Below the pieces are notes generated by a model. That model did not search any database. It was given only the letters and a program-made list of their open reading frames with translations, and was not told the DNA's origin. A stretch of 26,884 nucleotides of DNA from Salinarchaeum sp. (GTDB lineage: Archaea; Halobacteriota; Halobacteria; Halobacteriales; Salinarchaeaceae): contig JBKHFN010000001.1 of assembly GCA_046540195.1 (NCBI GenBank), forward strand, positions 1 to 26,884, read 5' to 3'. Every line of letters starts with the position of its first letter. Position 1 is the stretch's first letter. Shown here piece by piece: positions 3,957 through 26,884 of this stretch. A program made the position numbers and the translations under genes.

Positions 3957-4005
3957 ATCCGTTGGTGAGAGTCCCCAGCATATGACCGTTTGGCCTTCCC
4001 CCCGA

Positions 4006-7007: not shown

Positions 7008-7486
7008 GCGACGACTTGACCCACACTGACGCAGATGGGACCGCCGAGATGGTTGATGTCGGGGACAAGCCCGATACAGCTCGACGGGCCGTCGCCACCG
7101 GAACGATCGATCTCCAACCAGCGACAATCGACGCGATTGAGGCGGACACCATTGAGAAGGGAAACGTCCTTGCGACCGCCCGAATCGGCGCAATCCGCGC
7201 GGTCAAACACACCTGGGAGACAGTTCCACTATGTCACCAGATTCCGATCACGAACATCGAGACGACATTCGATGTCCGTGATGAAGCGGTCACCATCGAG
7301 GTAGCCGTCGAGACGACCGGCAAGACCGGCTGTGAGATGGAGGCGATCCAGGGTGTGACGACCGGCCTCGGTGTCCTCTGGGACATGGTAAAGGCCGCCG
7401 AGAAGGACACCGATGGACAGTACCCGGAGACGCGTATCCACGACGTCCGAGTGCCCGAAAAGGAGAAGCGCCCCCTCGACACATGA
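7004..7486 (+). CDS. moaC: cyclic pyranopterin monophosphate synthase MoaC
   Basis: LTH...MVDVGDK, IPLCHQI-like VPLCHQI, TGCEMEA and WDMVKA motifs; ATGA overlap with the nnr stop. Confidence 0.96.
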   Translation: MSDDLTHTDADGTAEMVDVGDKPDTARRAVATGTIDLQPATIDAIEADTIEKGNVLATARIGAIRAVKHTWETVPLCHQIPITNIETTFDVRDEAVTIEVAVETTGKTGCEMEAIQGVTTGLGVLWDMVKAAEKDTDGQYPETRIHDVRVPEKEKRPLDT

Positions 7487-8220
7487 CGGGCTCCGCAACG
7501 TCGCTCCCGACTACACTGGCCGCCGAGTCGGGGATCGTCTGTGCCGTCGGCGCCGGCGGCAAGAAGACGACGTTGTACGCGCTCGCCGACGCGCTTGATC
7601 GCGCGGTTGTCACCGCCACCGTTCGGATTCCGATCTTCGACGACGCGGTTGCCGATGTCGTCGTAACCGACAATCCAGCGGCGGCTGTGCGGGCGACGGA
7701 TGACTGGCCAATCGGTGTTGTGCCCGAGCGCGAGCGCGAGGACCGCTACCGAGGGTACGCTCCATCAACGATTGCCACTATTGACGCCGTTCCAAGCGTC
7801 CAGACGACACTCGTCAAGGCCGATGGCGCGCGGATGCGCCAGCTCAAGGCACCGAACGATCATGAACCACAGCTTCCAGCGGGTGCCGACACCGTACTCG
7901 TGCTCGCGAGTGTCCACACCGTCGGTGAAGCGCTAACCGACGAGTGCGTCCACCGTCCCGAACAGGTAGCCACAATCACCGGCCGTGAGTATGGCGATGA
8001 ACTCACCCCGGTCGATGTCGCGACCGTTCTCGCAAGCGAACAGGGAGGACAGAAGGCCATCCCGGCGGACGCAACCGCCATTGCGGTGCTTAATATGGTT
8101 GATAACGATACTGACAGGGCCGTCGCCGAACGGATCGCCGACGCGATTAGTGAATCGGCGTTTGATCGCGTTGTCCTCGCACGGATGCAAACCCCCGAAA
8201 TCGTCGCCGTCCGGGAGTGA
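7483..8220 (+). CDS. yqeC: YqeC-family selenium/molybdenum-cofactor accessory protein
   Basis: VGAGGKKTTLY P-loop-like motif, VTATVRI and LVKADGARMRQLKAPNDHEPQLP match the YqeC pattern EADG..xxPLKAP..HEP; ATGA overlap with moaC. Confidence 0.85.
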   Translation: MTGSATSLPTTLAAESGIVCAVGAGGKKTTLYALADALDRAVVTATVRIPIFDDAVADVVVTDNPAAAVRATDDWPIGVVPEREREDRYRGYAPSTIATIDAVPSVQTTLVKADGARMRQLKAPNDHEPQLPAGADTVLVLASVHTVGEALTDECVHRPEQVATITGREYGDELTPVDVATVLASEQGGQKAIPADATAIAVLNMVDNDTDRAVAERIADAISESAFDRVVLARMQTPEIVAVRE

Positions 8221-8224
8221 TCGA

Positions 8225-8908
8225 TCAGACAAACTGCTTGACTACGGCTGTGAGGTCGCCCCGTGTGTCGACGCTTTTGAAGCCAATGCCAGCGTTGTGG
8301 GCGTTAATAAGTGACTCGCCGACAGGGGTCCACGACAACGAGTCAAGCGGGGCCAAGGCCTTGCGGTCCCCGCGCTCAAGGGCGCGTTCACAGGCGCGGT
8401 AAGTCGGCATCCGCCGGTACACCGCCTGCAGCGGTTCATACCAGCCCTCAGGCGATATCGGCACGACGGCATCGTACGGCGGACTGTCATCAGGGGGTGT
8501 CGGACCCGCGGCGGGGACTGAAGGTGGATCAAAGCGCCGGTCGTTCGTCACTACCGAAAAGAGCGCATCGACGAACGACGGCACGACCGCTGGCATGTCA
8601 CAGGCGAGCACCGCCACGAGGTTCCCATCAGCAGCGGCGAGTCCGGAGTACATACCGGCCACCGGTCCTTCGTCGGGATGGTCGTCAAGGGCGATCCGCG
8701 TCGATGTTGAACATCCGTCAATGGCGGCGCGGATCGCCTTGCGCTGTTCGGTCCGGCAGTTGACGATCACCTCGTCAACAACCGTACCGAGCCGATCGGC
8801 AACACGGCGGACCATCGGCGTACCGGCGATCTCAACGAGCGCCTTGTCGGCCCCTACGAACCGAGTTGATCGGCCACCGGCCAGGATCACCCCCGAGCGT
8901 GTCGTCAT
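8225..8908 (-). CDS. mobA: molybdenum cofactor guanylyltransferase
   Basis: GVILAGGRSTRF..DKAL, GPVAG, LACDMP and EPLQAVY motifs. Confidence 0.9.
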   Translation of the reverse strand: MTTRSGVILAGGRSTRFVGADKALVEIAGTPMVRRVADRLGTVVDEVIVNCRTEQRKAIRAAIDGCSTSTRIALDDHPDEGPVAGMYSGLAAADGNLVAVLACDMPAVVPSFVDALFSVVTNDRRFDPPSVPAAGPTPPDDSPPYDAVVPISPEGWYEPLQAVYRRMPTYRACERALERGDRKALAPLDSLSWTPVGESLINAHNAGIGFKSVDTRGDLTAVVKQFV

Positions 8909-8933
8909 CGCGAGTGATTACTCAGCAGGCAGA

Positions 8934-9971
8934 TTAGGCGTTACGCCGTCGGTGGGCAAGAATTCCCGCCCCGGCCAGCGCCGTAGCCGCCACGCCGATG
9001 CCAAACCCGGGCTGTGGGTCCTCCGAGGTGGGTGGCGTTGATGCGTTCACCGTCGTGTCAGCCACCGGAAGCGTCGCGTTCGGGTGGAAGGCGTGTGCCA
9101 TCCGGGTGAGTGGAGTGACGACCCGAGGTCCAGGCTGACTCACGCGGTCAGCATCAACTACGAGGACCTGGTCGGACTGGACAGCGGTCGTCTCCATGAA
9201 GGGGGTCTCGTTGGTTGGCACACCAGCGTGACTGGGCGTCACGATCCACTCGGGATCAGACTGCGCGATGACTTCCTCGGAGATCGGTCTGAAGCCGGTG
9301 ATTCCGGCCTCAGAAGCGACGTTCTCGCCACCCGCAGTCGTGATAAGTTCGCCGATGAAGGTCTCTTCGCCAGCGGCGTACCCGAAGAAGTAGTATAGCA
9401 CACGCGGCGAGTCGCGATCGGTCACTGCCGTCTCAATGGTCTCGACGTGCTGGCGCATGTCAACGACGGTCTGATCGGCGGCACTACACGCCCCGAGGAA
9501 CTGACCGAACAGTCGCGTCTGAGTGTAGATCTCATCGAGCGATGCCGGCTCCGAGCGCTGATAGACGGTGATCCCTGCGGTCCGAAGCTGTCGGATGGTT
9601 GCGTTCCCGACGTAGTTCGGAGCGATCACCAGGTCCGGCTGCTGGGCGATGACCGTCTCGACATCAATCGACTCAATCGATGATCCCGTCACATCGGTCT
9701 TGGTTTCCGAACCATCGAGATACGATGTGTACTCGCCGACGGGCATACCGACGACGCGGTCTTCGGCACCGATTGCCCAGATGATCTGGGCAGCCGCCGG
9801 TTCCAAGACGACGACGCGATCGGCCGGTGTTGTCACCTCGACGGTCGTGCCGGTGTGATCCTCAACCGTCACCGGGTAGGTACACTCCGCGGCAGCCCCC
9901 GTAGCGAGAGCACCGCCGGCACCAACGAGGAGAACGGTGACCAGCGCGATTCGAATAACGTTCCGTCGCAT
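8934..9971 (-). CDS. btuF: PGF-CTERM-anchored ABC substrate-binding protein, cobalamin/Fe-siderophore (BtuF) class
   Basis: N-terminal signal peptide; 'DVETVIAQQPDLVI' and 'QPGPRV' class III binding-protein motifs; C-terminal PGF + hydrophobic helix + RRR archaeosortase signal; divergent from btuCD. Confidence 0.85.
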   Translation of the reverse strand: MRRNVIRIALVTVLLVGAGGALATGAAAECTYPVTVEDHTGTTVEVTTPADRVVVLEPAAAQIIWAIGAEDRVVGMPVGEYTSYLDGSETKTDVTGSSIESIDVETVIAQQPDLVIAPNYVGNATIRQLRTAGITVYQRSEPASLDEIYTQTRLFGQFLGACSAADQTVVDMRQHVETIETAVTDRDSPRVLYYFFGYAAGEETFIGELITTAGGENVASEAGITGFRPISEEVIAQSDPEWIVTPSHAGVPTNETPFMETTAVQSDQVLVVDADRVSQPGPRVVTPLTRMAHAFHPNATLPVADTTVNASTPPTSEDPQPGFGIGVAATALAGAGILAHRRRNA

Positions 9972-9991
9972 AGGAGCGTCTGCGCGTCCAG

Positions 9992-10013
9992 TACAAAAGA
10001 GATTTAATTATTA
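9992..10013. promoter_or_regulatory. compact divergent promoter of btuF and btuC
   Basis: AT-rich core TTTAATTATTA at 10003-10013 within a 58-bp gap between the divergent start codons. Confidence 0.5.
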
Positions 10014-10029
10014 CAACTGAGATTGTTCT

Positions 10030-11076
10030 GTGGTACTCCATCGGACGCTCCGGTGGTCGGCCGGACTCGGTGTCGTCCTGCTGGGAGTCATCGTCGGTAG
10101 CGCCACCATCGGACCGGCAGACATCGGGGCCTTCGAGACGATAGCCATCCTCCTTGAGATGGTCGTGGTGCCCACCTACGCGGCCGGGAGTCTCGAGTGG
10201 ATCCACCCATTTGCCGCAGACGTGTCGACGACGACCCGTACCATCGTTGGATCAATCCGTCTGCCACGGATCCTCCTTGGGGCGGTTGTCGGGTTTGCGC
10301 TTGCGACCGCCGGCACGGTGTTCCAGGGATTCTTCCGAAATCCGCTGGCTGATCCGTCGATTATCGGCATCTCCGCTGGCGCCGCAACCGGAGCCGTCGG
10401 CTACATCGTCGCACCAGTTACCGTCCCATACGGACTCCCAGCGGCGGCGTTCGTCGGCGGGCTGTTTACCGGCGGGCTGGTGTACGTTATCGCGACGGAA
10501 GGCGGACGAACACCGGTTGCGACACTCCTGCTGGCGGGGATTGCCGTTCAGACGTTCTTCGGTGCCGTCATTTCCTATCTACTGTTGAACGCCGGGAGGA
10601 GCCTCGAACGCGTCGTGTACTGGCTCATGGGTCATCTCCACGCCAGCACGTGGTGGCGACTGAGCATTGCGGTGCCGCCAGTCCTGGTCGTCTTTGCCCT
10701 TCTGTTGGCTCACACCCGTGACCTCAATCTGCTGATGATGGGCGAGGAGCACGCCCACGCGCTCGGTCTTAACGTCGAGCGCAGCAAACGCAACCTCCTT
10801 GCCGGCGCCAGCATCGTGACCGCGGCCGGGGTCGCCGTTTCGGGCGTTATCGGGTTTGTCGGTCTCGTCGTCCCCCACATCATGCGCCTGCTTGTCGGCC
10901 CCGATCATCGGGTGCTACTCCCCACGAGTGCGCTTGCTGGCGCGATCTTCCTCGTAGCGACAGATACCGTTGCCCGCGCCGGGGCCGCAGAACTCCCCGT
11001 GGGGATCGTTACGGCCGCCCTCGGCGCGCCGTTCTTTCTGTACCTCCTCATCAGTCGTGAGGTGCACTCGGTATGA
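10030..11076 (+). CDS. btuC: vitamin B12-type ABC transporter permease (FecCD family)
   Basis: IRLPRIL, FRNPLADPSIIGISAGA, GEEHAHALG, IGFVGLVVPH and ELPVGIVTA motifs. Confidence 0.92.
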   Translation: MVLHRTLRWSAGLGVVLLGVIVGSATIGPADIGAFETIAILLEMVVVPTYAAGSLEWIHPFAADVSTTTRTIVGSIRLPRILLGAVVGFALATAGTVFQGFFRNPLADPSIIGISAGAATGAVGYIVAPVTVPYGLPAAAFVGGLFTGGLVYVIATEGGRTPVATLLLAGIAVQTFFGAVISYLLLNAGRSLERVVYWLMGHLHASTWWRLSIAVPPVLVVFALLLAHTRDLNLLMMGEEHAHALGLNVERSKRNLLAGASIVTAAGVAVSGVIGFVGLVVPHIMRLLVGPDHRVLLPTSALAGAIFLVATDTVARAGAAELPVGIVTAALGAPFFLYLLISREVHSV

Positions 11077-11849
11077 TCAAGGTTAACGATCTTGTCGTCA
11101 AACTGGGCGGCCAGCAAATCCTCAAGACAGTATCATTGTCGGTGGCGACCGGGACCGTCCTTGGGCTGGTCGGCCCAAACGGTGCCGGCAAGACGACGCT
11201 GTTGCGAGCCATCGACGGATTCCTTGATCCGACCGCCGGAACGGTGCGGATCGACGGCGACCGGGTTGAGACACTCGATGCGAGCGATCTCGGACAGCGA
11301 GTCGGGGTCGTCCCACAGGAGTCGACGATTGGGTTTGACTTCGATGTCGAGACACTCGTCGAAATGGGGCGATACCCTCACCGCGGACGCTTTGGCACGC
11401 CGACGGAGGCCGACCGACAGGCGATCGAGACGGCGCTTAAACGGACGGACACGACCGGTCTGCGCGACCGGTCGATAACAACGCTCAGCGGCGGACAGCG
11501 GCGGCGGGTGCTCATCGCTCGTGCGCTCGCACAGGACCCTGCCGTCTTGCTACTCGACGAGCCGACGGCCAGTCTTGATATTAACCACCAGACCGCAATT
11601 CTGTCGCTTGTACGGTCGATCGCTGCCGACGATCGAACGGTCATCCTCGCGATACACGACCTTGATCTCGCGGCGCGGTTCTGTGACCGGGTTGCACTCC
11701 TCGAAAACGGAACGATCCGCGCACGCGGTCGGCCACAGGACGTACTCACCGCCGATCGACTCAAAGCGGTGTTCGGCGTCGATGTGGCCGTTGAACCGCA
11801 TCCAGCGACCGGGCACCCATCGGTAACACCACAGCCGGAGGACGGCTAG
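11073..11849 (+). CDS. btuD: ABC transporter ATP-binding protein (BtuD/FepC type)
   Basis: Walker A GPNGAGKT, signature LSGGQRRR, Walker B LLLDEPT and H-loop IHDL; ATGA overlap with btuC. Confidence 0.92.
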   Translation: MIKVNDLVVKLGGQQILKTVSLSVATGTVLGLVGPNGAGKTTLLRAIDGFLDPTAGTVRIDGDRVETLDASDLGQRVGVVPQESTIGFDFDVETLVEMGRYPHRGRFGTPTEADRQAIETALKRTDTTGLRDRSITTLSGGQRRRVLIARALAQDPAVLLLDEPTASLDINHQTAILSLVRSIAADDRTVILAIHDLDLAARFCDRVALLENGTIRARGRPQDVLTADRLKAVFGVDVAVEPHPATGHPSVTPQPEDG

Positions 11850-13156
11850 ACCGACTCGACGGTTGCAACGAGGTCGCTAGCCTTCGAGCGCGACTGTGCG
11901 ACAACAGAGGGGTGGGCCGCAAACTCGATACAGACGCTATCGTTATTATAGCTCACGTCATCAACGCGCGCGTGGTCGTGCACCCATGAAACGACACTCA
12001 TCGTCTCATCGGTCATCGGCATCACCAGTCGCTCGTGCTCAAGTGCCGGCAGTTCCTCGTGGATCCGATCACGCAACGAGGCAATGTTAGCCCCGGTTGT
12101 GGCACTCACCGCGACCGGGTCGGTCGCCAGCGCCGAGAGTGCAGCGCGCTTCTCTGCGAGTTCGATCTCGTCAACGCGGTCGGTCTTGTTGAGGACCGTC
12201 GCAATCGGCGCCTCATTGCGCTCATAGAGCGTATCGTGGGCGGTCACGAGTTTCTCGCGGATGTCCTCAATCGGTTCGCTCACGTCAACAACGAGCAACA
12301 CAAGGTCGGCCCGGTAGACCGCATCAAGCGTCGACTTAAACGACTCCACAAGCCAGTGTGGCAAATCGCTGATAAAGCCGACCGTGTCCGTCACCAGCAC
12401 GTCGCGGCTGTCGATGGCCGCCTCGCGGGTAGTCGTGCCGAGGGTGGTAAACAGCCGGTCCTCGGATTCGGCTGTCGGGTCAAGATCCGGGTGGAGGTCC
12501 TCGTTTTCGTCGACATCAAGATCGGCCGCCAATCGGCGAAGCAGCGTCGATTTGCCGGCGTTCGTATAGCCCGCTAGCGCCACCAGATCGAAGCCAGACT
12601 CGCGGCGCTGGGCGCGACGGTCAGCCTCGGTCTGTTCGATGGCCTCAAGTTCGTCACGAATCCGGCTGATGCGCGCTTTGATGTCCTGTTCGCGGCTCTC
12701 GTCGTACTCGCCGAGCCCCATGAACCCGGGATGTTCGTCCCGTTTGGCGAGGCTCGTTTTGGCCTCCGTCCGCGGGAGTTCATAGCGTAACTCCGCAAGT
12801 TCGACCTGGAGTTGGGCCTTGCGCGTCTGTGCGCGCTGGCCGAAGATGTCCAAAATGAGCTTGAACCGGTCAAGTACCTCAGTCCCTTCTGGAAGTTTCT
12901 GTCCGAGATTGTACGTCTGATAGGGGCCAAGACGGTTGTCGAATAGGACCGTCTCTGCGTCGGTCGTGAAGACCGTCCGGGCGAGTTCCTGTACCTTCCC
13001 GGCGCCGATGGCCGTCGCCGGATCCTCCGGGCGCGTCTGGGTGATCTCTCCGACAACGGTATAGCCGGCCGACTCCGCGAGGTGTGTGATCTCCTCGGTG
13101 TCAGCCGTCCCCTGATCAACCCGCTTTACGATGACCGCACGCTGCTCGCCTGACAC
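11846..13156 (-). CDS. hflX: ribosome-associated GTPase HflX
   Basis: ILDIFGQRA, QVELAELRY, GYTNAGKST, LFTTL, DTVGFI and NKTD motifs. Confidence 0.96.
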   Translation of the reverse strand: MSGEQRAVIVKRVDQGTADTEEITHLAESAGYTVVGEITQTRPEDPATAIGAGKVQELARTVFTTDAETVLFDNRLGPYQTYNLGQKLPEGTEVLDRFKLILDIFGQRAQTRKAQLQVELAELRYELPRTEAKTSLAKRDEHPGFMGLGEYDESREQDIKARISRIRDELEAIEQTEADRRAQRRESGFDLVALAGYTNAGKSTLLRRLAADLDVDENEDLHPDLDPTAESEDRLFTTLGTTTREAAIDSRDVLVTDTVGFISDLPHWLVESFKSTLDAVYRADLVLLVVDVSEPIEDIREKLVTAHDTLYERNEAPIATVLNKTDRVDEIELAEKRAALSALATDPVAVSATTGANIASLRDRIHEELPALEHERLVMPMTDETMSVVSWVHDHARVDDVSYNNDSVCIEFAAHPSVVAQSRSKASDLVATVESV

Positions 13157-13209
13157 GTATACAGGGGTAGCTTACGGGCTCGGGAATAATAAACCCCGCC
13201 GCGACCGGG

Positions 13210-14154
13210 TTACACCAGTAGTCCAACAGCGAAGGTGACCGCGTAGGCCAACAGCAGCTTGCCGGTTCGCTCAAGCGCCGGGTTCAACGCATCACCGTCG
13301 GTGTGTGTCCAGACAGTGTTGGTTATCACGAGCCCATACGGAAGCGTCACAAGCGGTAATAGCGCACCGATGCCGGCTGGTTCGACCCCGACACCGAGCC
13401 AGAAGACCACGGGGACGAGGTATGACACCACCATCATGAGAAGAAATTCGATACGGCTGAGGCGGTAGCCAATGAGCACGGCGAGAGTGTGTTTGCCGGC
13501 GGCCCGATCTGACTCAAGATCCCGCACGTTGTTCACCACAAGAACGTTTGTCGACAGCGCCGCCATCGGAAGGCTCGCAACGAGGGCTTCAAGTGGAACC
13601 GTCCCGGCCGGAACACCGACCGGGGTCAGTACACCAAGACTCGCGACCGCCTGGACGTAGACGGTGCCAGTCACCGCAATGACTCCGAAGAAGACGAACA
13701 CGAAGAGATCACCAAGCCCGTGTGAGCCAAGCGGGTAGGGCCCCCCCGCGTAGGCGTAGCCGCTGATCAAGCTTGCCAGTCCGATGACGAGGATCGGGAC
13801 ACCACCGACGTACACCAGGTAGCCGCCCACCAGCAGCGCAAGGCCGTAGGTCGCAAGCGCCGCGGCTTTGACCCGATGGGCCGGGATCAATCCGGACTGG
13901 GTGACGCGCGTGTAGCCGTCCTCGCGGGCCGCATCAACGCCGCGAACGCCATCGTGATAGTCATTCGCGAAGTTCGTGCCGATCTGGATCAACAATGCCC
14001 CAACCAAGGCGGCGACAGCTGGACCGACGGCGGCAAGATCAAGCCAAAGTGCGACGGCGACGCCGACAATCACGGGGGCGGCCCCCGCAGGAAGTGTCTG
14101 TGGCCGAGCAGCCATCAGCCAGGCCCGGCGGCGACTGACCTCAGTACGCATCAT
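13210..14154 (-). CDS. menA: 1,4-dihydroxy-2-naphthoate polyprenyltransferase
   Basis: AARPQTL, NFANDYHD, YAGGPYPL..HGLGD and NNVRDLESDRAAGKHTLAV motifs; multi-TM. Start trimmed to ATG 14154 (or 14151). Confidence 0.93.
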   Translation of the reverse strand: MMRTEVSRRRAWLMAARPQTLPAGAAPVIVGVAVALWLDLAAVGPAVAALVGALLIQIGTNFANDYHDGVRGVDAAREDGYTRVTQSGLIPAHRVKAAALATYGLALLVGGYLVYVGGVPILVIGLASLISGYAYAGGPYPLGSHGLGDLFVFVFFGVIAVTGTVYVQAVASLGVLTPVGVPAGTVPLEALVASLPMAALSTNVLVVNNVRDLESDRAAGKHTLAVLIGYRLSRIEFLLMMVVSYLVPVVFWLGVGVEPAGIGALLPLVTLPYGLVITNTVWTHTDGDALNPALERTGKLLLAYAVTFAVGLLV

Positions 14155-14270
14155 TTCTGTGATGTCCGGGCAGCCGATTACCTTTGTCGGACTGGACGGA
14201 CGGGCACTCACACCTGCTGTGATCGGGGATACCTCCAACAGTTATGTGGCTTGACCCCGTCACCCTGTAT

Positions 14271-18946: not shown

Positions 18947-20635
18947 TTACTGTCGCACTGGATCCTCAACGGCCTCTGCAGTCGACAGTTCATCGGCCGC
19001 CTCGTACCGGACGTAACCGCCAGTGAGGCTACGAGAGTCGATTCCGTGCTGATTCAGGATGCGCGAGGCCACGTACGAGGCCTTGCCGATTGCACAGTAG
19101 GTGAGCACCTCTTCCTCGTCGCTTAGGTCCGTCTGGGCAATCCACTCGCGCAACTCGGCCAGTGGAACATGCGTTGTTCCGTCGATGTGTCCCTGGGCGT
19201 CGCGCAACTCAGCCGATCGGGTGTCGATCACGAGCGTGTCAGACTGTGCCTTGATGAACTCCTCAAGCTGGATGACATCGGCGACTCCCTCAAGGACGTT
19301 CGTTCCGATCATTCCGAGGACGTTCACCGGGTCTTTCGCGTCAGAATACGGCGGTGCGTACGCCAGGTCAAGATCACGAATGTCGTAGACGGTATCGCCG
19401 TGAGCGATTGCGGTTGCTAGCACGTCGATGCGTTTGTCAACCCCATCGGTGCCGACAGCTTGGGCGCCGAGGAGCGTGCCATCCGTCTCATCGAAGAGCA
19501 ACTTGAAGTGGATGTCCGCTGCGCCAGGATAGTACTCGGCGTGGCTGGCCTCGCTTGTGTAGATCGCCTCATAAGACCGGCTAGCCTCCGAAAGCGCCTC
19601 CTCGGTCATCCCGACGGTGCCGACATCAAGATCGAACACCTTCGCGATCGCCGTGTCGAGGACCGGATCAAGGGCGTCCTCGTGACCAACAATGTCGTTG
19701 GCGGCAACACGTCCCTCACGGTTGGCCGGCCCACCGAGTGGCACCCAGTCACGTCCCTCGCCGAGGACAGTCGGAACCGCAACGGCGTCGCCAACGGCGT
19801 GGATCGCCGGATCAGACGTACGCATCGCGCTGTCGACGGCGATAGCCCCGCTTTCATCGAGTTCGAGGCCAGCTGCCTCCGCGAGATCCGTCCGTGGTGC
19901 AACTCCGGTTGCAATAACAGCGAGGTCGAACGCGTGATCTTCCTCACCGATCTCGGCAGTGACGGTTCCAGAGGCATCCTCACTCAGGCTCCCGACACCC
20001 GTTCCGGTACGAAGATCGGTTCCGTGGTCGTCAAGATGTTGCTCGACAATAGCGGCCATATCTGCTCCGAGGGTGTTTGGCATGACATGATCAAGGAGCT
20101 CAGCGACCACGACATCGAGGCCGGCCTCGGCGAGGTTTTCGGCCACCTCAATTCCAATGTATCCACCGCCGATAACGAGTGCGCGATCGGCTGCCTCGAC
20201 TTCCTCGCGCACGCCGATCGCGTCCGGGACGGTCCGCATCGTATAGCAGTGCTCGAGTTCGTCGAGATCGAACATCGGCGGAACGATCGGCTCGGCGCCG
20301 GTCGCCAATACCAGCTCGTCATACGATAGCGTGTAAGTGTCACCATCCGCAGGCGAGACCGTGACAGTCTGGGCCTCCGGATCGACATCGGTCGCCGTCT
20401 CGTTAGTCCGGACATCAAGCGCGAAGGAGGCCTCAAGCTGGTCGGCCCCAATCACCGCGAGGTCAGACTCCGGGACCGTCTCGCTTAGGTGATACGGAAG
20501 CCCACAACTCGCATAGGAGACGTGGTCGCCCTGTTCGAGCACAATGATCTCCGCGTCCTCATCGAGTCGACGGAGTCGGGCCGCCGTGCTCATTCCCGCT
20601 GCGTTGCCGCCAACCACCACATACTGTTCGCTCAT
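18947..20635 (-). CDS. CoA-disulfide/persulfide reductase with C-terminal rhodanese domain (CoADR-RHD/Npsr type)
   Basis: FAD motif VVGGNAAG, redox Cys in SYASCGLPY, NAD motif IGGGYIG, AVGDA, YAPPYSDAKDPVN and rhodanese loop YCAIGKASY; 562 aa. Confidence 0.88.
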   Translation of the reverse strand: MSEQYVVVGGNAAGMSTAARLRRLDEDAEIIVLEQGDHVSYASCGLPYHLSETVPESDLAVIGADQLEASFALDVRTNETATDVDPEAQTVTVSPADGDTYTLSYDELVLATGAEPIVPPMFDLDELEHCYTMRTVPDAIGVREEVEAADRALVIGGGYIGIEVAENLAEAGLDVVVAELLDHVMPNTLGADMAAIVEQHLDDHGTDLRTGTGVGSLSEDASGTVTAEIGEEDHAFDLAVIATGVAPRTDLAEAAGLELDESGAIAVDSAMRTSDPAIHAVGDAVAVPTVLGEGRDWVPLGGPANREGRVAANDIVGHEDALDPVLDTAIAKVFDLDVGTVGMTEEALSEASRSYEAIYTSEASHAEYYPGAADIHFKLLFDETDGTLLGAQAVGTDGVDKRIDVLATAIAHGDTVYDIRDLDLAYAPPYSDAKDPVNVLGMIGTNVLEGVADVIQLEEFIKAQSDTLVIDTRSAELRDAQGHIDGTTHVPLAELREWIAQTDLSDEEEVLTYCAIGKASYVASRILNQHGIDSRSLTGGYVRYEAADELSTAEAVEDPVRQ

Positions 20636-20783: not shown

Positions 20784-21701
20784 ATGGATGGTCAGCGGAT
20801 CCTCGTGACGGGTGGCGCCGGGTTCATTGGCTCGAATGTCGCTAACGCACTCGCCACGACCAATGAGGTGATCGCACTCGATGATTGCTACCTGGGAACA
20901 TCCGATAATCTCAATCCATCGGTGACTTTCGCCGAGCGGAGTGTCCTTGAGGAGGATCTCCCGACGGACATGGATGTCGTCATCCACCTCGCCGCACTAT
21001 CCTCGTATGCAATGCACGAGGAGAACCCCCAGCTGGGGGCCCGGGTCAACGTTGAGGGCTTTGTCAACGTTGTCGAGCAGGCCCGTCAGGACGGTTGTGA
21101 GACCGTCGTCTATGCGTCGACCTCCTCGATTTACGGAGACCGGACCGAGCCCTCGCCGGAATCGATGGACGTCGAGGCGAACACCGGCTATGAGGCCTCA
21201 AAACTCGCTCGGGAGCGCTATGCAGAGTATTTCCACAACCACTACGGCCTGTCAACAGCAGGGCTGCGCTTTTTCTCGGTCTACCAGGGCTATGAGGGTG
21301 CCGAGGGGCACAAGGGCGAGTACGCCAACGTGATCGCGCAGTTTGCCGATGACATCGCCCACGGCCGGGCGCCGAAACTCTACGGCGATGGCACCCAAAC
21401 TCGGGATTTCACCCACGTTTCGGACGTTGTCGCCGCAATCGAGCGGACCGCAGAAGAACAGCTCCAGGGCATCTACAATGTCGGCACCGGCCGACAGATA
21501 TCGTTCAACCAGCTCGTTGAGCTGCTCAACGACGTGCTTGGCGCCGAGGTTGACCCGGAGTACGTCGAGAATCCAATCCCTGAGTCGGTCTACGTCCACG
21601 ATACCATGGCGGACGCGACAAAACTCCGTGAGGCGACCGGGTGGGAGCCCCACATCGATCTTGAAGAAGGGCTCGAACAGGTATGTGATCCCTACCTGTA
21701 G
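20784..21701 (+). CDS. NAD-dependent nucleotide-sugar epimerase/dehydratase (extended SDR)
   Basis: VTGGAGFIGS, HLAA, YASTSSIYG, YEASK (YxxxK), LRFFSVY and GTQTRDFTHV motifs; start trimmed to ATG 20784. Confidence 0.92.
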   Translation: MDGQRILVTGGAGFIGSNVANALATTNEVIALDDCYLGTSDNLNPSVTFAERSVLEEDLPTDMDVVIHLAALSSYAMHEENPQLGARVNVEGFVNVVEQARQDGCETVVYASTSSIYGDRTEPSPESMDVEANTGYEASKLARERYAEYFHNHYGLSTAGLRFFSVYQGYEGAEGHKGEYANVIAQFADDIAHGRAPKLYGDGTQTRDFTHVSDVVAAIERTAEEQLQGIYNVGTGRQISFNQLVELLNDVLGAEVDPEYVENPIPESVYVHDTMADATKLREATGWEPHIDLEEGLEQVCDPYL

Positions 21702-21818
21702 CGATCGTTGATACGGCAAGTGCGTGAGTTCGCCGCGCTGCTGTATGGTCTCGCCCGGAACAGCCGGATTGTGGGCCGCTGTTAGCGATCAGTCGGGGCA
21801 CTCTGTTCACCGGGTGAC

Positions 21819-22838
21819 CTACTGGAGCGCGCGGATGCCGAAGGCCGACATTGAGGCACCGCCGATGACCAGTGGAACGCCGAAGATGGCGCCACGGAAA
21901 ATCAATACCGCGGCGGTAATCGCCGAGGCGCTGATGCCCGTCGTCGCGACTAACAGCGTGACGAAGGCGGCTTCGATCCCACCGACGCCTCCCGGAAGTG
22001 GGGTTGCTCCCGCCAGGTTCGCCAGCGGAATAACGAACAGCAACACCGCCGGCGAGACAGAGTATCCGAGGGCTGAAAAGGCCATCAGCAGCGCCCCAAC
22101 CTGAAACAGCCACCCCGTCAACGAAAGTCCGACGACAGCCGTCATCCGCCACCGACTGGCAGCCACGCGCTCAATGTTCTCGAAAAAGCGTTCCATCCGG
22201 TCGGTGAGTTCGGTCTCAAGCGTGTCGGCGTCGAGTTGTGCGATCCCGAACTCGCCTAGCCGTGGAGCAATGACCGGCGGAAGACGCTCAATGATCGCAT
22301 AGCGATAGCGCCAGACCAGCGCCAATACCAGCAGGATGGCGGCGATCAGTACGACAGCGGAACTGACGGCCGTCTCGATACGACTCTCGACAGCAGTCGT
22401 CGTGGCGTAGTAGCCGACGCCAACGAACACCAGCGATATCGACGGCACGACGTTCAGTACGTCGACACTCGCGATCCCGACCAGGCCCGTTTCATACCGC
22501 GAGTTGGACGCCTTCGAGATGAGCATCGCCGCGATCGGCTCGCCGCCAGCCTGTCCGAAGGGCGTGATATTGTTCGCGAATAGGGCTCCAGCATAGACAA
22601 AAAATGCCTTGATCGCAGAGATCTGGACGTCGAGACTCTTCATGACGAGCTTTAGCATAATGCTCCACGCGCCGAGCCAACAGATCGCCATGCCGAAGGT
22701 CGCCACGACGTACGCCGGAGCAGCCGAGAGTAACGCCTCAACAACGCGATCGGCCCCGACAACCACGATGATGACCACGAGGATTGCGATCGCCACGAGT
22801 GCCCCGACGATCAAGGCCCGTCGCTGGTCTCTGTCCAT
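21819..22838 (-). CDS. UPF0104 / lysylphosphatidylglycerol-synthase-TM-domain (flippase-like) membrane protein
   Basis: Multi-TM; FANNITPFGQAGGEP and TPLPGGVGGIEAAF motifs; start trimmed to ATG 22838. Confidence 0.88.
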   Translation of the reverse strand: MDRDQRRALIVGALVAIAILVVIIVVVGADRVVEALLSAAPAYVVATFGMAICWLGAWSIMLKLVMKSLDVQISAIKAFFVYAGALFANNITPFGQAGGEPIAAMLISKASNSRYETGLVGIASVDVLNVVPSISLVFVGVGYYATTTAVESRIETAVSSAVVLIAAILLVLALVWRYRYAIIERLPPVIAPRLGEFGIAQLDADTLETELTDRMERFFENIERVAASRWRMTAVVGLSLTGWLFQVGALLMAFSALGYSVSPAVLLFVIPLANLAGATPLPGGVGGIEAAFVTLLVATTGISASAITAAVLIFRGAIFGVPLVIGGASMSAFGIRALQ

Positions 22839-22945
22839 GGACGTGACACCCTGGGTTCGAGCAGGGTGGACTTGAAACATCTGTTTGGGCACTACCGGCA
22901 GACCGGTTCAATCGGTTTATTTGATCGCCGCGGTGAGTCAGGCAT

Positions 22946-24511
22946 ATGGGCGGATCGACGCAGTCGAATTTGCTATTCGTCGTCCTCGATACGGTCCGAA
23001 AGGACCGGCTTGGACCATACGGTCACGAGCGGGAGACGACGCCGACGCTCGATCGCTTCGCACAGGGGGCGACGGTCTTCGAGTCAGCGGTCGCCCCAGC
23101 GCCGTGGACGCTGCCCGTCCACGCCTCGCTGTTCACCGGGCGGTATCCCAGCCACCACGAGGCTACCCAGGAGAGCCCGTATCTTGAGGCCGACCGGACC
23201 CTCGCCACGCTCCTTGTGGCCGCCGGGTACGACACCGCGTGTTACTCCTCGAACGCCTGGATCACCCCATACACAGGGCTCACCGACGGCTTCGACGATC
23301 ACGCCTCGTTCTTCGAGGCACTTCCCCGGGATGTATTCTCCGGCCCGCTCGCGAGCGCCTGGCGGATCATCAACGATAATGACTACCTCAGATCAATCGC
23401 CTCGAAACTCGTCCGTCTTGGGGCGATGGCCCACGCCCGGTTCGCCAGCAGCCCCGAAGCCGACTCGAAGACACCGGCGGTTATCGACCGGGCTCAGTCG
23501 TTTATCGATGCCAGCGACAGCGATCGCGGCTGGTTTGTGTTCTTGAACCTGATGGACGCCCACCTGCCGTATCACCCGCCCGACGTGTACCGCGAGGAGT
23601 TCGCCCCTGGCGTCGATCCCGACTCCGTCTGTCAGCTCTCGAAGGAGTATAACGCCGGCGTTCGCGACATCGACTCGGAGGAGTGGACGGCCATCCGTCA
23701 GCTCTACGATGCGGAGATTGCGCATATGGACGCCCAGCTCGGCCGGCTTTTCGAGTGGTTGCGCGAGACGGGCCAATGGGATGACACGACCGTTATCGTC
23801 TGTGCTGACCATGGCGAACTCCACGGTGAGCACGACCTATACGGCCACGAGTTCGCTCTTTACGACGAGCTCGTGAACGTTCCGCTCCTAGTTGACCACC
23901 CTGCGCTTGACGCCGATCGCCGGGATGATCTCGTTGAGTTACTCGATCTGTATCATACAGCGCTTGATACCCTCTCCGTTACCGACATCGGAGCGCCGGA
24001 GACGACCGCGGGAGCGGCCGCCTTCGACCCTACCCGATCGCTGGTGGCCGACACCTACCGGGCGTTCGAGACGGTGAAGGCGCCTGATCCTGGGCAGGAG
24101 GCTGTTCAAGCGACCGATAACGACTACGCGTTCATCGAGTATGACCGTCCGGCGATCGAGCTCCACCACCTCGAACAGAAGGCTGCTGAGGCGGGAATCG
24201 ATCTCCCTGAGGACCACCGGGCGTACTCGCGGCTCCGCGCCGCCCGTTCGACAGCAGCGAAGTACATCCGCGCGGATGTAATCGAAGACGAGGCGTACCG
24301 CATCGATACTGATCCGGCGGAGTCAACTTCGCTTACTCCGGACGATGACGATCAGATCGCAGCTGCCGAGGCCGCGTTAGGCCGCTTCGAGACCGCCATC
24401 GGTGGGGCGTGGGAACAGCCAGCCACCGCGGCCGGTAGCGAGCCAACAGCGTTAGCTGACGCTGACGAGCAGACGCGTGAGCGGCTCCGGGAGCTTGGAT
24501 ACCTCGAATGA
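22946..24511 (+). CDS. sulfatase-like hydrolase/transferase (alkaline phosphatase superfamily), Thr at the nucleophile site
   Basis: VVLDTVR, APWTLPVHASLFTG, NLMDAHLPY and ADHGE...GH motifs; no CxPxR; TTTATTT box at 22916-22922. Confidence 0.88.
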   Translation: MGGSTQSNLLFVVLDTVRKDRLGPYGHERETTPTLDRFAQGATVFESAVAPAPWTLPVHASLFTGRYPSHHEATQESPYLEADRTLATLLVAAGYDTACYSSNAWITPYTGLTDGFDDHASFFEALPRDVFSGPLASAWRIINDNDYLRSIASKLVRLGAMAHARFASSPEADSKTPAVIDRAQSFIDASDSDRGWFVFLNLMDAHLPYHPPDVYREEFAPGVDPDSVCQLSKEYNAGVRDIDSEEWTAIRQLYDAEIAHMDAQLGRLFEWLRETGQWDDTTVIVCADHGELHGEHDLYGHEFALYDELVNVPLLVDHPALDADRRDDLVELLDLYHTALDTLSVTDIGAPETTAGAAAFDPTRSLVADTYRAFETVKAPDPGQEAVQATDNDYAFIEYDRPAIELHHLEQKAAEAGIDLPEDHRAYSRLRAARSTAAKYIRADVIEDEAYRIDTDPAESTSLTPDDDDQIAAAEAALGRFETAIGGAWEQPATAAGSEPTALADADEQTRERLRELGYLE

Positions 24512-24561
24512 GGACGAACCAATAAGAATACATGCGTTCCTTCAAAAAGGACGGATAACTG

Positions 24562-25407
24562 ATGGAGGATCATCGCTTTCTGGAGTCAGACTGGGACTAC
24601 GCGATCGTCCTCGACGCGTGCCGGTACGATGTCTTCAGCGAGGTCTACGACGAATATCTCGACGGTGACCTCGAAAAGCGCTGGAGTACGGGCTCGTCAA
24701 CCCCCGAGTGGGCCTACCGGACCTTCACCGACGTCCACGATATCGCGTATTTCTCTGGAAATCCGTTTATTAACAACCTGGGAATCCCATTGAACGAGCT
24801 CAAATGGGGGGCAAGCTGTGATTATGAGTGGGCTGCCTCCGATCATATCAGCGATGTCTACGATGTCTGGCAGACCGGCTGGGACGACGACCTCGAAACC
24901 GTCCCACCCGAGAGTATCGTCGAGGCCTACCGCAACAACCGTAGTGCTGCGGCGGAGGCTGACCGGGTTGTGCTCCACTACATGCAGCCGCATGCGCCGT
25001 ATCTCTCACGGGGAAAGGGTCAGAAGCTCAAACAGATTCAGAAAGGACTGAAAAAAGAGAGCGAGGAAGAAGACGACGGGCCACTCGCAACCGTCACCGA
25101 CGCTGTCCGCCCGCGAGTCGAACAGGCACTTGAAGGGAGCGAGTGGGCCCAGAAGATTGGTCTCATGCTCGAACTTGATCCGATCGACATCGTCAGAGAT
25201 GGTACGCGTGAGGCCGCAATGGAACTCTACGAAGAGAACCTCCGGATCGCGCTTGAATCCGTCGCTGAGGTGACGGACGAACTTGACGGGACTGTGATCG
25301 TCACCGCCGATCACGGAGAGGCCTTCGGCGAGGAGGGCGTCTGGGAGCACCATATCGAGACCCACATTCCTGCGCTGATGGAGGTCCCGTGGCTCGAAGT
25401 CAAGTGA
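24562..25407 (+). CDS. compact alkaline-phosphatase/sulfatase-fold protein
   Basis: VLDACRYD, STGSSTPEW, HYMQPHAPY and TADHGEAFGE..VWEH metal-ligand motifs. Confidence 0.8.
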   Translation: MEDHRFLESDWDYAIVLDACRYDVFSEVYDEYLDGDLEKRWSTGSSTPEWAYRTFTDVHDIAYFSGNPFINNLGIPLNELKWGASCDYEWAASDHISDVYDVWQTGWDDDLETVPPESIVEAYRNNRSAAAEADRVVLHYMQPHAPYLSRGKGQKLKQIQKGLKKESEEEDDGPLATVTDAVRPRVEQALEGSEWAQKIGLMLELDPIDIVRDGTREAAMELYEENLRIALESVAEVTDELDGTVIVTADHGEAFGEEGVWEHHIETHIPALMEVPWLEVK

Positions 25408-25435
25408 CCGGTCCACGTTGTCAGCGTCGTTGACG

Positions 25436-26428
25436 ATGAAGATCAGCCACTATCTTGAGTTCGAGTCACAGATCACCGGCGGTATCCGTGAGTCCGTCGC
25501 CCACCAGCGGGCGATCCTCGACAGTCTCGATGTCACCTATACGACCGAGCCACGACTGGATGTTGACGTACTGCACTGTAACCTCATGGGCCCTCGGTCG
25601 GTCTGGTACGCTCGGCGCGCTCGGGCGCGGGGAGTTCCCGTGATTGCTCATACGCACGTCACCGCGGAAGACTTTGGTGACAGCTTCCGATTTACGAACG
25701 CACTCGCGCGGCCCTTGCGGCCGTATCTCAAACGAGCGTACGCGCAGGCGGACGTGCTCGTTTGTCCATCGGAGTACAATCAGTCGCTACTCAAGACCTA
25801 CGTCGACCGGCCGACAACGGTCATCTCGAACGGCGTCGACCGGGAGAAACTCGCTGGCTTCGAGTCACTTGAAACCGAGTATCGTGATCGCTACGATCTT
25901 GATGGCCCGGTTGTATTCCTCGTTGGACATGTAATCAAGCGCAAGGGGCTTGAGACGTTCGTCGAACTCGCTCGGCAGATGCCCGACTTCGAGTTTGCCT
26001 GGTTCGGTCCGCTTGACCTCTCACTTAAGGACCGTGAGACCACTCGCCTGATCGAGACGGCCCCGGAGAACTGTACGTTCACCGGATATATCGATGATAT
26101 CCGTGGGGCCTTCGCGGCAGGAGACATCTTCTGTTTTCCAACCCACGAGGAAAACGAGGGAATCGCACTACTAGAGGCAATGACAGCCGGTAAACCCGTG
26201 GTCGTGCGCGACATCGAGACGTTCGGCTGGCTCGAAGACGGGGTAGACGCGCTTAAAGTTCCGGCCGATGCCGGTGTCAACGCGTTCGTTGAGGCTCTCA
26301 GACAACTTGAGAGTCCAACCGAGCGCAAGCGACTCGGCGAACGGGCGCGCGAGCGAAGTGCCGCGTTCTCGCTTGAAGCACTCGCCGAGCGGTATCGATC
26401 TCTGTACCGGGAGGTGACGAATACGTGA
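25436..26428 (+). CDS. GT4 glycosyltransferase resembling CpoA-type diglycosyl-lipid synthases
   Basis: MKISHYLEF...GGIRESVAHQR N-terminus, HTHVTAEDFGDSFRF, RKG and ENEGIALLEAM motifs; start ATG 25436. Confidence 0.88.
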   Translation: MKISHYLEFESQITGGIRESVAHQRAILDSLDVTYTTEPRLDVDVLHCNLMGPRSVWYARRARARGVPVIAHTHVTAEDFGDSFRFTNALARPLRPYLKRAYAQADVLVCPSEYNQSLLKTYVDRPTTVISNGVDREKLAGFESLETEYRDRYDLDGPVVFLVGHVIKRKGLETFVELARQMPDFEFAWFGPLDLSLKDRETTRLIETAPENCTFTGYIDDIRGAFAAGDIFCFPTHEENEGIALLEAMTAGKPVVVRDIETFGWLEDGVDALKVPADAGVNAFVEALRQLESPTERKRLGERARERSAAFSLEALAERYRSLYREVTNT

Positions 26429-26459
26429 AAGATTGCCACGACGATCCGAGTGAACGACG

Positions 26460-26884
26460 ATGAGAATCGGCTTTTTTACCGACAGCTACTTTCCCGAGGT
26501 TGACGGTGTCACCTACACACTCAAACTCTGGCGTGAGAAACTCGAAGCGCGAGGGCATGAGGTGTATGTGATCTACCCGGACGGGGCCTACGAACCCGGG
26601 CCACGGGAGATTCCCGTGCCATCAGTGTCAAACCCATTTTATGACGGGTACCGGATCCCGCTGTTCCGGCCGCTTGCGGCCTTGCCGGCCCTTGATGTCG
26701 TCCACTGCCACGGCCCGGCCCCTGTCGGGATGCTCGGTCGGTACTACGCCTGGAAACACGGGGTGCCATCGGTATACACCCACCACACCCCACTTGAGGA
26801 GTACTTTGAGCAGAGCATCGGCATCACGTCGATCGCCAACGGACTCGCGAAGGGGTATGTACCGCTTGAGACCGCCTTCCTTCG
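26460..26884 (+). CDS. GT4 glycosyltransferase resembling LafA/MGS monoglucosyl-lipid synthases; runs off the window
   Basis: Not in the ORF track. Hand translation: MRIGFFTDSYFPEVDGVTYTLKLWREKLEARGHEVYVIYP...DVVHCHGP...VYTHHTPLEEY, open to the window end. Confidence 0.88.
   Translation, partial: MRIGFFTDSYFPEVDGVTYTLKLWREKLEARGHEVYVIYPDGAYEPGPREIPVPSVSNPFYDGYRIPLFRPLAALPALDVVHCHGPAPVGMLGRYYAWKHGVPSVYTHHTPLEEYFEQSIGITSIANGLAKGYVPLETAFL

Follow-up and report, generated by a model that had tools for sequence, protein, structure and literature searches.

The right end of a 26,884-nucleotide stretch of Salinarchaeum sp. DNA (GenBank assembly GCA_046540195.1, contig JBKHFN010000001.1; the whole stretch is called the window here) carries six genes that include two tandem glycosyltransferases of family 4 (GT4-A and GT4-B), a UPF0104 membrane protein, and two proteins, sulf521 and alkp281, assigned to the alkaline phosphatase (AlkP) fold, the latter from a predicted model. 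This compact gene set is widely conserved in haloarchaea and is the best available candidate for the synthesis of their (sulfated) diglycosyl membrane lipids. Judged by their family relationships, the two glycosyltransferases are probably glycolipid synthases. The analysis reduces the field of candidates to a single GT4 pair, which is nearly single-copy and occurs in 167 of 200 near-complete genomes. A preliminary description of the window, made from the letters alone, had stated that it knew of no firm gene assignment for haloarchaeal glycolipids; a full-text literature search, with most subscription journals outside its reach, found none. In the Halobacteria, glycosyl and sulfoglycosyl diethers serve as markers in chemotaxonomy (PMC10704169, partial text).

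The tandem glycosyltransferases GT4-A and GT4-B

The glycosyltransferase beginning MKISHYLEF, GT4-A, had been placed with the second-sugar transferases of the LafB/CpoA type. Over its full length it matches NF053513, the model of the lipoteichoic acid glycolipid anchor biosynthesis glycosyltransferase (IagA/BgsA family), at 282.5 bits (E = 3.9e-84) against an equivalog cut-off of 460, with residues 1–328 colinear with profile positions 1–332 of 333. Dgs, the processive diacylglycerol alpha-glucosyltransferase, scores 201 bits, whereas the best non-lipid GT4 family reaches 69.8 bits and the N-glycosylation protein Agl16 only 26. The full-length match and its distance from the next non-lipid family (282 versus 70 bits) uphold the assigned type, but the score stays under the NF053513 cut-off, which was reached in none of the 201 Halobacteria genomes of our sample (200 genomes at least 90% complete, plus the host genome, G000). 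By every comparison, then, GT4-A appears to be a retaining GT4 that is a relative, not an equivalog, of the IagA/BgsA/Dgs (LafB/CpoA) subfamily. Both domains of the retaining GT-B fold are present (PF13439, 54.9 bits; PF00534, 71.4; PF13692, 83). An acidic E-x7-E motif is the hallmark of the GT4 C-terminal domain, and GT4-A carries one, HEENEGIALLEA, as read by eye from the translation. Lysine and arginine make up 12.4% of its residues, an unusually basic composition for the host proteome that would suit a peripheral enzyme on an anionic membrane.

Relatives of GT4-A were sought among 1.84 billion representative sequences at E ≤ 1e-30, which yielded a compact subfamily of 156 representative clusters. 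Among 94 full-length relatives chosen from the 150 matches listed, two score above the cut-off for BgsA, at 482 and 470 bits, and several resemble Dgs; named members come from Saccharibacillus and Thermotoga and include an Acholeplasmatales protein annotated as 1,2-diacylglycerol-3-alpha-glucose alpha-1,2-glucosyltransferase. One automatic annotation already labels a GT4-A orthologue (P0080) as a diacylglycerol-glucose glucosyltransferase. Several representatives of about 700–770 residues (P0135, P0136, P0150, P0151, P0170, P0178, P0220, and P0234) match GT4-A in two stretches and look like fused tandem GT4s of the same subfamily. Sequence searches of the ESM Atlas and the Protein Data Bank (PDB) with both glycosyltransferases returned generic GT4 relatives only (PimA, glycogen synthase) and no solved structure from the subfamily.

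A phylogeny, which the preliminary description had proposed as a check, was built from 92 rows by a quick maximum-likelihood search with SH-aLRT (approximate likelihood-ratio) support only, many rows being of deviant composition. All 87 subfamily rows split from the GT4-B outgroup with support of 100. The 23 haloarchaeal GT4-A rows fall, without exception, into one 31-row clade (support 97) together with eight further representatives, two of them from Haloarculaceae and Nanohaloarchaea assemblies, while a separate 43-row clade contains 20 of the 21 high-scoring BgsA/Dgs rows. The tree thus bears out the subfamily and its distance from GT4-B but sets the haloarchaeal clade beside, not inside, the BgsA/Dgs clade, and leaves the mutual relation of the two undecided. 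Of the haloarchaeal genomes searched, G017 scores highest on the BgsA model (358.6 bits), at another locus (L100, positions 7151–12781), where a UPF0104 gene (31% identical) abuts the GT4-A-like gene and a 476-residue type I phosphodiesterase of the AlkP superfamily lies 2 kb off; no GT4-B-like gene was seen nearby.

GT4-B is represented in the window by 141 residues only, because the contig ends inside the gene. This fragment matches PF13439 at 57 bits and, over residues 1–116, NF049988, the model of the alpha-monoglucosyl-diacylglycerol synthase Mgs, at 56.7 bits. A full-length orthologue from a same-genus genome (G004, locus L017, positions 7995–9035) is 346 residues long, 94% identical over the 141 residues, and carries both GT4 domains (63.9 and 91.5 bits) as well as the motif GDTLGLAPLEA, by eye an E-x7-E with Asp as the first acid. 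Its two leading family scores are nearly equal, 90 bits for N-acetylglucosaminyl-phosphatidylglycerol synthase and 89.2 for Mgs, two enzymes that take lipids as acceptors, with the next family at 52. When the Mgs model was run against five genomes, its top match was in every case GT4-B or the GT4-B-like gene of a divergent (type-2) tandem, at 51–87 bits. The claim that this transferase is of the LafA/Mgs type therefore holds in that it is the best genomic counterpart, but the relation is remote, with Mgs scores of 51–89 bits against a cut-off of 400. On these scores GT4-B may be described as a retaining GT4 remotely of the Mgs/LafA-like kind.

Conserved gene order and distribution in Halobacteria

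For synteny we used the named loci retrieved with a profile of GT4-B orthologues, taking the best 80 of 214, and mapped the window proteins onto them. The five-gene order UPF0104 (on the opposite strand), sulf521, alkp281, GT4-A, GT4-B occurs in 30 of these 80 loci, among them Natrinema, Natrialba, Haloterrigena, Halovivax, Natronorubrum, Halalkalicoccus, Haloarchaeobius, and some Halovenus. A four-gene form lacking sulf521 occurs in a further 18, comprising all Halorubrum loci except L070 and L098 together with Saliphagus, Natronoarchaeum, and others. Since the same order and orientation recur in this way, the arrangement is not due to chance. The UPF0104 gene is the divergent neighbor in all 30 and all 18 of these ordered loci, which confirms the earlier link of this gene to the module, and 62 UPF0104-matching open reading frames (ORFs) were counted over the 80. 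GT4-A adjoins GT4-B in 61 loci; a close alkp281 orthologue is found in 69 and a close sulf521 orthologue in 35. The flanks vary by genus and consist of housekeeping genes. In other families, a more divergent GT4-A-like/GT4-B-like tandem (42–59% and 33–37% identical, respectively) is present in 10 of 15 further fetched loci, where it lacks the AlkP-fold genes. One of the six type-2 loci inspected (L108 of genome G021) also encodes, at positions 4875–5723, a digeranylgeranylglyceryl phosphate synthase (NF009521, 366 bits, over cut-off); the distance to the GT4 pair downstream is about 2 kb, and the proximity may be coincidence.

Across the class sample, a GT4-A-like gene (BgsA model, E ≤ 1e-50) is carried by 167 of 200 genomes and 53 of 67 genera, mostly as a single copy. 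The 14 control organisms gave matches only in Lactococcus lactis (over cut-off) and Haloferax volcanii (E ≤ 1e-50); none at E ≤ 1e-30 was reported in the other 12, which include Methanocaldococcus, Sulfolobus, Methanosarcina, Bacillus subtilis, and Thermotoga maritima. The alkp281 profile finds 70 of the 200 genomes and, with G000 included, all 71 alkp281 genomes also carry a GT4-A-like gene; by coordinates read by eye, the two are neighbors in 51 of 69 strong cases. Because every alkp281 genome has the GT4-A-like gene and in most the two adjoin, alkp281 is best regarded as an accessory of the GT4-A pathway.

The distribution fits the published lipid profiles, a comparison that the preliminary description had proposed. 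According to the partial text of PMC10704169, Natrialba asiatica DSM 12278 and Natrinema gari JCM 14663 make monoglycosyl diether (MGD), diglycosyl diether (DGD), and sulfated DGD (S-DGD), with disulfated DGD (2S-DGD, or S2-DGD) in N. asiatica and none listed there for Natrinema gari; the main glycolipid is a diglycosyl diether in N. asiatica and Haloterrigena turkmenica and mostly triglycosyl in Natrinema gari, and three Haloferax species make DGD and S-DGD. Both N. asiatica (L028) and Natrinema gari (L046) carry the module; no locus titled Ht. turkmenica stands among the best 80 of 214. The genus Natrialba offers a comparison within one group: Natrialba magadii is described as having no glycolipids and accumulating sulfotrehalose, and N. 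asiatica as having S2-DGD (PMC3403918, partial text). In the genus sample taken around the N. asiatica genome, three of seven genomes carry the GT4-A-like gene, the same three carry a close GT4-B, and the only Natrialba species among the best 80 of 214 loci are N. asiatica, N. taiwanensis, and N. aegyptia. A soluble-sugar osmolyte such as sulfotrehalose was considered as the product of the locus and set aside, because the strong relatives of GT4-A act on glycolipids and because the genus of the sulfotrehalose-accumulating N. magadii lacks the pair in four of seven genomes.

AlkP-fold proteins, the flippase-like protein, and a proposed pathway

The statement that the locus holds two sulfatase-fold genes applies differently to its two members. 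In sulf521, PF00884 is matched at 154.9 bits against a cut-off of 25, and the metal-site motifs DT.R.D and DHGE are kept. The signature of formylglycine sulfatases is Cys/Ser-x-Pro-x-Arg, in which Ser can in principle also be converted to formylglycine. Aligned to PDB entry 4upl, sulf521 has Thr at the position of the formylglycine Cys and His at that of the Arg (Thr-Leu-Pro-Val-His). Of 26 aligned sulf521-type sequences, 24 have Thr and two Ser at the nucleophile position, and 25 share the motif APW[T/S]LPxHAS, the exception being a second sulfatase in L017 (Thr in another context); the Arg of the signature is His or absent in all 26, so that none carries the formylglycine signature. In contrast, alkp281 stays below every Pfam cut-off, with weak matches to sulfatase (20 bits), PglZ (18 bits), and the STM4013 family (29 bits), and its fold assignment comes from a predicted structure. 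Its invariant residues include D18, C20, R21, D23, S45, S46, H139, H144, D250, H251, and H263, of which D18, D250, H251, and H263, together with S45/S46/T47, fit an AlkP-like metal and nucleophile site, with roles assigned by eye. The AlphaFold model (pLDDT 74.5) finds its best Foldseek matches in the catalytic domains of MCR-1, EptC, and EptA, in LtaP, and in phosphonate monoester hydrolases and sulfatases, at a moderate level (E about 5e-4, TM score 0.40–0.47). This moderate match suggests that alkp281 is a minimal soluble protein of the alkaline phosphatase superfamily. Neither sulf521 nor alkp281 has a hydrophobic segment, and hence neither has a signal peptide, a transmembrane (TM) segment, or a multi-pass domain as in EptA/MCR-1 and LtaS.

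Precedents for sulfate addition by this fold come from haloarchaeal protein glycosylation. Deletion of agl7 in Hfx. volcanii (HVO_2046, annotated as an N-acetylgalactosamine-4-sulfatase in Table S1) leaves the dolichol-phosphate-linked hexose without its sulfate (PMC3892788), and Agl30 and Agl31 of Halobacterium salinarum, both of the AlkP/sulfatase fold, are reported as sulfotransferases on the basis of deletion and of expression in Hfx. volcanii (PMC11980604, partial text). At another locus, that of Halalkalicoccus paucihalophilus (L054, positions 2622–4052), a 477-residue protein with weak matches to the arylsulfotransferase (ASST) beta-propeller (35 bits) is encoded just past UPF0104, as is a VTT/DedA-domain protein; the ASST-like protein represents a possible alternative route of sulfate transfer, on the evidence of these matches.

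The UPF0104 protein matches PF03706 at 140.3 bits (cut-off 33.4) and the "flippase-like domain" model TIGR00374 at 108.4 bits (cut-off 43.2), and is polytopic with about eight hydrophobic segments. The epimerase is an NAD-dependent sugar-nucleotide epimerase/dehydratase. Its best equivalogs all remain below cut-off (heptose epimerase, 163 versus 275 bits; GalE, 125 versus 262), and UDP-sulfoquinovose synthase was rejected as its identity at 24 bits against a cut-off of 575. Homologues of the epimerase lie within 10 kb in some related loci (e.g., L025, L028, L045, and L075), and because its position shifts among these relatives, it is only loosely tied to the module.

The membrane lipids of the archaeal host are diethers (archaeol) rather than diacylglycerols, and the haloarchaeal DGD, S-DGD, S2-DGD, and triglycosyl diether (TGD) share the core Man-alpha1,2-Glc-alpha-archaeol. 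In the pathway that we propose, GT4-B, as a peripheral cytoplasmic GT4, would place the first hexose onto archaeol or a close lipid precursor, and GT4-A would add the second, converting monoglycosyl to diglycosyl archaeol. By analogy, the alpha-1,2 bond that bacterial relatives of GT4-A make on an alpha-glucosyl-lipid matches the bond of this core. The soluble sulf521 and alkp281 would then act on the sugar from the cytoplasmic side, sulfate being the likeliest group to be added, with alkp281 serving as a second modifier or as a partner of sulf521; UPF0104 would move the finished glycolipid to the outer leaflet, and the epimerase could supply a sugar nucleotide donor. Gene content, family relations, synteny, and distribution are observed, whereas the catalytic steps, acceptor, donor sugars, AlkP-fold reaction, and flipping are what we infer from them. 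On balance we lean, by no great measure, towards reading the locus as a whole as a pathway for the (sulfated) diglycosyl diether lipids of haloarchaea. That the AlkP-fold proteins sulfate the lipid sugar, a proposal made by analogy with Agl7, Agl30, and Agl31, is more tentative, its chances standing at somewhat less than even; the AlkP step is the weakest part of the pathway. The preliminary description had the product sulfated or phospho-modified by these enzymes, and for sulfate this finds its precedent in the three Agl proteins, but the number of AlkP-fold genes fails to track the number of sulfates. Halorubrum has 2-O-sulfated mannose. One specific version, which we regard as speculative and rather doubtful, would make sulf521 and alkp281 founding members of a soluble class of Thr-nucleophile AlkP-fold proteins that sulfate membrane glycolipids through a covalent enzyme intermediate and with positional specificity, alkp281 being kept in Halorubrum-type loci and sulf521 adding the second sulfate in Natrialba-type organisms.

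Several observations weigh against the proposed pathway. We know of no sulfate donor for AlkP-fold "sulfotransferases". To the scores of both glycosyltransferases below their cut-offs, and the place of the GT4-A clade beside that of BgsA/Dgs, is added that the acceptor of GT4-B could be a phospholipid, because its top score is shared with an enzyme that glycosylates phosphatidylglycerol (PG); the best equivalog of UPF0104 is likewise the glucosaminyl-PG (GlcN-PG) flippase, at 59 bits against a cut-off of 320. The GT4 pair of many diglycosyl-lipid producers has neither AlkP-fold gene nearby, and an alkp281 match at E ≤ 1e-40 is missing from 97 of the 168 GT4-A-like genomes. "Two AlkP-fold genes, two sulfates" was rejected as a simple rule, since Natrinema gari has both genes and no disulfated DGD. 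In the N. asiatica draft, alkp281 is split over two overlapping ORFs (L028, positions 7934–8437 and 8080–8913, within 7934–8913) despite production of 2S-DGD, which reflects either an error of the draft or an alkp281 that is dispensable for sulfation. In the low-salt N-glycan cluster of Hfx. volcanii, HVO_2046 (sulfatase), HVO_2047 (a hypothetical protein of 296 residues), and HVO_2048 (GT4) follow one another, and deletion of HVO_2047, which is possibly alkp281-like, had no detectable effect. A GT4, a sulfatase, and a hypothetical protein of about 300 residues also stand side by side in a glycan island of genome G027. Finally, the four Natrialba-genus genomes that lack GT4-A are presumed, rather than seen, to be the glycolipid-free alkaliphiles, N. 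magadii included.

Three other explanations were weighed. The module might build a dolichol-phosphate-linked, possibly sulfated oligosaccharide for N-glycosylation or another surface glycan, with the GT4s acting on the lipid carrier, the AlkP-fold proteins sulfating, and UPF0104 flipping. To our knowledge N-glycosylation is general in haloarchaea, yet the gene is missing from 33 of the 200 near-complete genomes and from four of seven in the genus Natrialba, and GT4-A scores 282 bits on the glycolipid model versus 26 on Agl16. All sulfatase-fold proteins shown to take part in the sulfation of haloarchaeal glycans come from N-glycan pathways, the HVO_2046–HVO_2048 order resembles sulf521, alkp281, GT4-A, and a GtrA-like gene and a CARDB-domain surface protein come after the locus in the nearest relative. 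Distant alkp281 paralogues do lie in glycan islands, of which the one in G027 (L115; G027:C1:716000-734000) is instructive: it has a GC content of 0.49 and combines a GT2, a Wzx-like flippase, four sulfatase-domain genes, three GT4s, an epimerase, and two alkp281-like genes of about 300 residues with no Pfam family, but its GT4s reach just 33–40 bits on the BgsA model, and the BgsA-like pair of that genome is kept elsewhere. Pairs of this kind, a small AlkP-like protein with a sulfatase, seem to recur as a unit in the glycan clusters of haloarchaea. Around nine inspected loci of the GT4 pair (three type-1 and six type-2), by contrast, neither rhamnose genes nor Wzx, GT2, or aglB turned up, and the GC content of the window is normal; the module thus lies outside islands of the N-glycan or exopolysaccharide type, in agreement with the lipid setting first proposed. 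We therefore consider a glycan-building role unlikely. More improbable still, in our estimate, is that the two GT4s act on the head group of a phospholipid such as archaetidylglycerol, and not on archaeol itself, to give hexosyl-PG lipids with UPF0104 as the matching flippase, in the manner of the bacterial GlcN-PG synthase and flippase. The best NCBIfam match of GT4-B (N-acetylglucosaminyl-PG synthase, 90 bits) and that of UPF0104 noted above both point this way, and hexosyl-PG (Gly-PG) is listed for Natrinema gari, Haloterrigena turkmenica, and Hfx. volcanii (Table 2, PMC10704169, partial text). Both matches, however, are far under their cut-offs (480 and 320), Mgs equals the PG synthase for GT4-B at 89 bits, the substrate extended by the strong relatives of GT4-A is glucosyl-diacylglycerol and not PG, and the module has no deacetylase; moreover, diglycosyl diethers predominate in two of three lipid-profiled Natrialbales strains (PMC10704169, partial text).

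The remaining explanation leaves the glycolipid core to the GT4 pair and gives the AlkP-fold proteins another reaction than sulfate transfer: they could be lipid-remodeling hydrolases (desulfation, phosphodiesterase) or, like LtaS/EptA, phospho-transferases attaching a group that contains phosphate, for example archaetidyl, as in glycocardiolipins. Ser/Thr at the nucleophile position of both proteins, a position assigned by eye in alkp281, is as in phosphoryl-transfer members of the superfamily, and in structural comparison alkp281 matches phosphoethanolamine transferases and LtaP best; both proteins, however, lack the LtaS/EptA membrane domain as well as any signal or TM segment. Haloarchaeal glycocardiolipins (S-DGD-PA and DGD-PA) do exist, but Natrialbales carry both genes with glycocardiolipins nearly absent and sulfated lipids dominant (PMC10704169, partial text). 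The failure of AlkP gene presence to track sulfate number, and the many S-DGD-capable lineages that appear to have no AlkP genes beside the GT4 pair, favor such a role; the sole experimental data on soluble haloarchaeal AlkP-fold proteins favor sulfate addition (PMC11980604, partial text). We regard a reaction other than sulfate transfer as possible though improbable, and retain the (sulfated) diglycosyl diether pathway as the preferred reading of the locus.

Layout of the locus and comparison with known systems

The window is the entire 26.9-kb contig of a 73%-complete metagenome-assembled genome, and the nearest named relatives obtained by locus retrieval are assemblies titled uncultured Salinarchaeum sp. 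The six-gene content and the positions first described are correct, and both quoted GT4 N-termini are exact. All genes of the locus except the flippase-like one are on the plus strand. That gene diverges from sulf521 with a spacing of 53 bp, and the gaps between sulf521, alkp281, GT4-A, and GT4-B are 50, 28, and 31 bp. The window has an even GC content throughout, and the locus an ordinary one.

Predicted genes at the right end of the window, with the family matches that identify them
Gene product	Positions	Strand	Evidence
SDR epimerase/dehydratase	20784-21701	+	PF01370, 162 bits
UPF0104 / LPG_synthase_TM membrane protein	21819-22892	-	PF03706, 140 bits
sulf521, 521 aa, sulfatase domain	22946-24511	+	PF00884, 155 bits
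alkp281, 281 aa	24562-25407	+	Pfam matches all below cut-off (sulfatase, 20 bits vs 25); fold from predicted model
GT4-A	25436-26428	+	NF053513, 282.5 bits; N-terminus MKISHYLEF
GT4-B, N-terminal 141 aa	26460-26884	+	NF049988, 56.7 bits; N-terminus MRIGFFTDSYFPEVDGV

The remaining genes of the window are unrelated housekeeping genes (pyruvate:ferredoxin oxidoreductase, shikimate-pathway, molybdopterin, ABC transporter, HflX, MenA, and ribosomal protein L11 genes, and others). A UbiA-family gene (13210–14238, minus strand) was considered as an archaeol-synthesis neighbor and rejected; because it is MenA, the 1,4-dihydroxy-2-naphthoate polyprenyltransferase (342 bits, over cut-off), it is unrelated to the locus. 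The EPSP synthase gene aroA (4006–5327, minus strand) consists of two overlapping ORFs, 4404–5327 covering profile positions 5–250 and 4006–4467 covering positions 277–415, the result of either a frameshift or an assembly error in the metagenome-assembled genome. A CoA-disulfide-reductase-like flavoprotein with a rhodanese domain (18947–20635, minus strand) flanks the locus both here and in G004, and a homologue (33–35% identical) lies 1–4 kb downstream of GT4-B in five Natrinema loci (L031, L034, L038, L046, and L047). Gene products of the G004 locus, L017, are 90–99% identical to those of the window. Beyond GT4-B, at positions 9180–13821, this locus continues with a DUF2070 membrane protein (619 residues, 606 bits), a second sulfatase-fold gene, and the GtrA-like and CARDB-domain proteins. 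DUF2070 follows GT4-B in only three of the 80 related loci, all titled Salinarchaeum, and the genes from DUF2070 onward are not counted in the core module.

Haloarchaeal glycolipids are also bound in the purple membrane and used as vaccine adjuvant lipids. If sulf521 and alkp281 do form the sulfating class described above, they would constitute, together with the GT4 pair and UPF0104, the first complete gene set for lipids of the S-DGD type. Since a GT4-A-like gene is present in the tractable Hfx. volcanii, the gene assignment can be tested there directly. The analysis also delimits alkp281 as a small unannotated family, putatively of the AlkP fold, strictly linked to the GT4-A pathway, and extends the question of sulfate addition by sulfatase-fold proteins from glycans to lipids. 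New points are the archaeal setting with its proposed ether-lipid acceptor, the separate GT4-A clade, the alkp281 linkage, and the Thr-type sulfatase-fold partner.

In its design the locus resembles the glycolipid operons of Firmicutes and Mollicutes, where tandem LafA-like and LafB-like genes are a published arrangement in Listeria, Streptococcus agalactiae, Enterococcus faecalis, and Streptococcus pneumoniae (PMC3089915, partial text). As in LafA/LafB (Listeria), EF2890/BgsA (E. faecalis), gbs0683/IagA (S. agalactiae), Spr0982/CpoA (S. pneumoniae), and alMGS/alDGS (Acholeplasma), cytoplasmic GT4s related to first- and second-sugar transferases are encoded by adjacent genes. The Listeria operon also encodes LafC, an eight-TM protein of unknown function (Webb 2009), comparable to the polytopic protein with about eight segments encoded alongside here. 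Unlike those operons, the present module has an archaeal host and, in our proposal, archaeol as acceptor; its GT4-A forms a separate clade with scores below cut-off, two AlkP-fold genes are added, and no lipoteichoic acid is involved.

The AlkP-fold pair invites comparison, by fold class and annotation, with Agl7 of Hfx. volcanii and Agl30/Agl31 of Hbt. salinarum, sulfatase/AlkP-fold proteins that are likewise encoded next to glycosyltransferases and that lipid-linked sugars genetically require for their sulfate. Agl31 is soluble (PMC11980604, partial text), as are sulf521 and alkp281. The Agl proteins act on dolichol-phosphate-linked N-glycans, whereas the substrate proposed here is a membrane glycolipid, and alkp281 differs from them in being much smaller (281 residues) and in having no Pfam family above cut-off. 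With the formylglycine (type I) sulfatases, sulf521 shares PF00884 and the metal motifs, but it has a Thr/His signature and lacks a signal peptide or TM segment. The UPF0104 protein, in turn, belongs to the same PF03706/TIGR00374 family as the MprF-type flippase domain and the GlcN-PG flippase, with about eight TM segments and a place beside lipid-modifying genes; unlike MprF, it has no fused synthase domain, and the lipid it would flip is a glycosyl archaeol.

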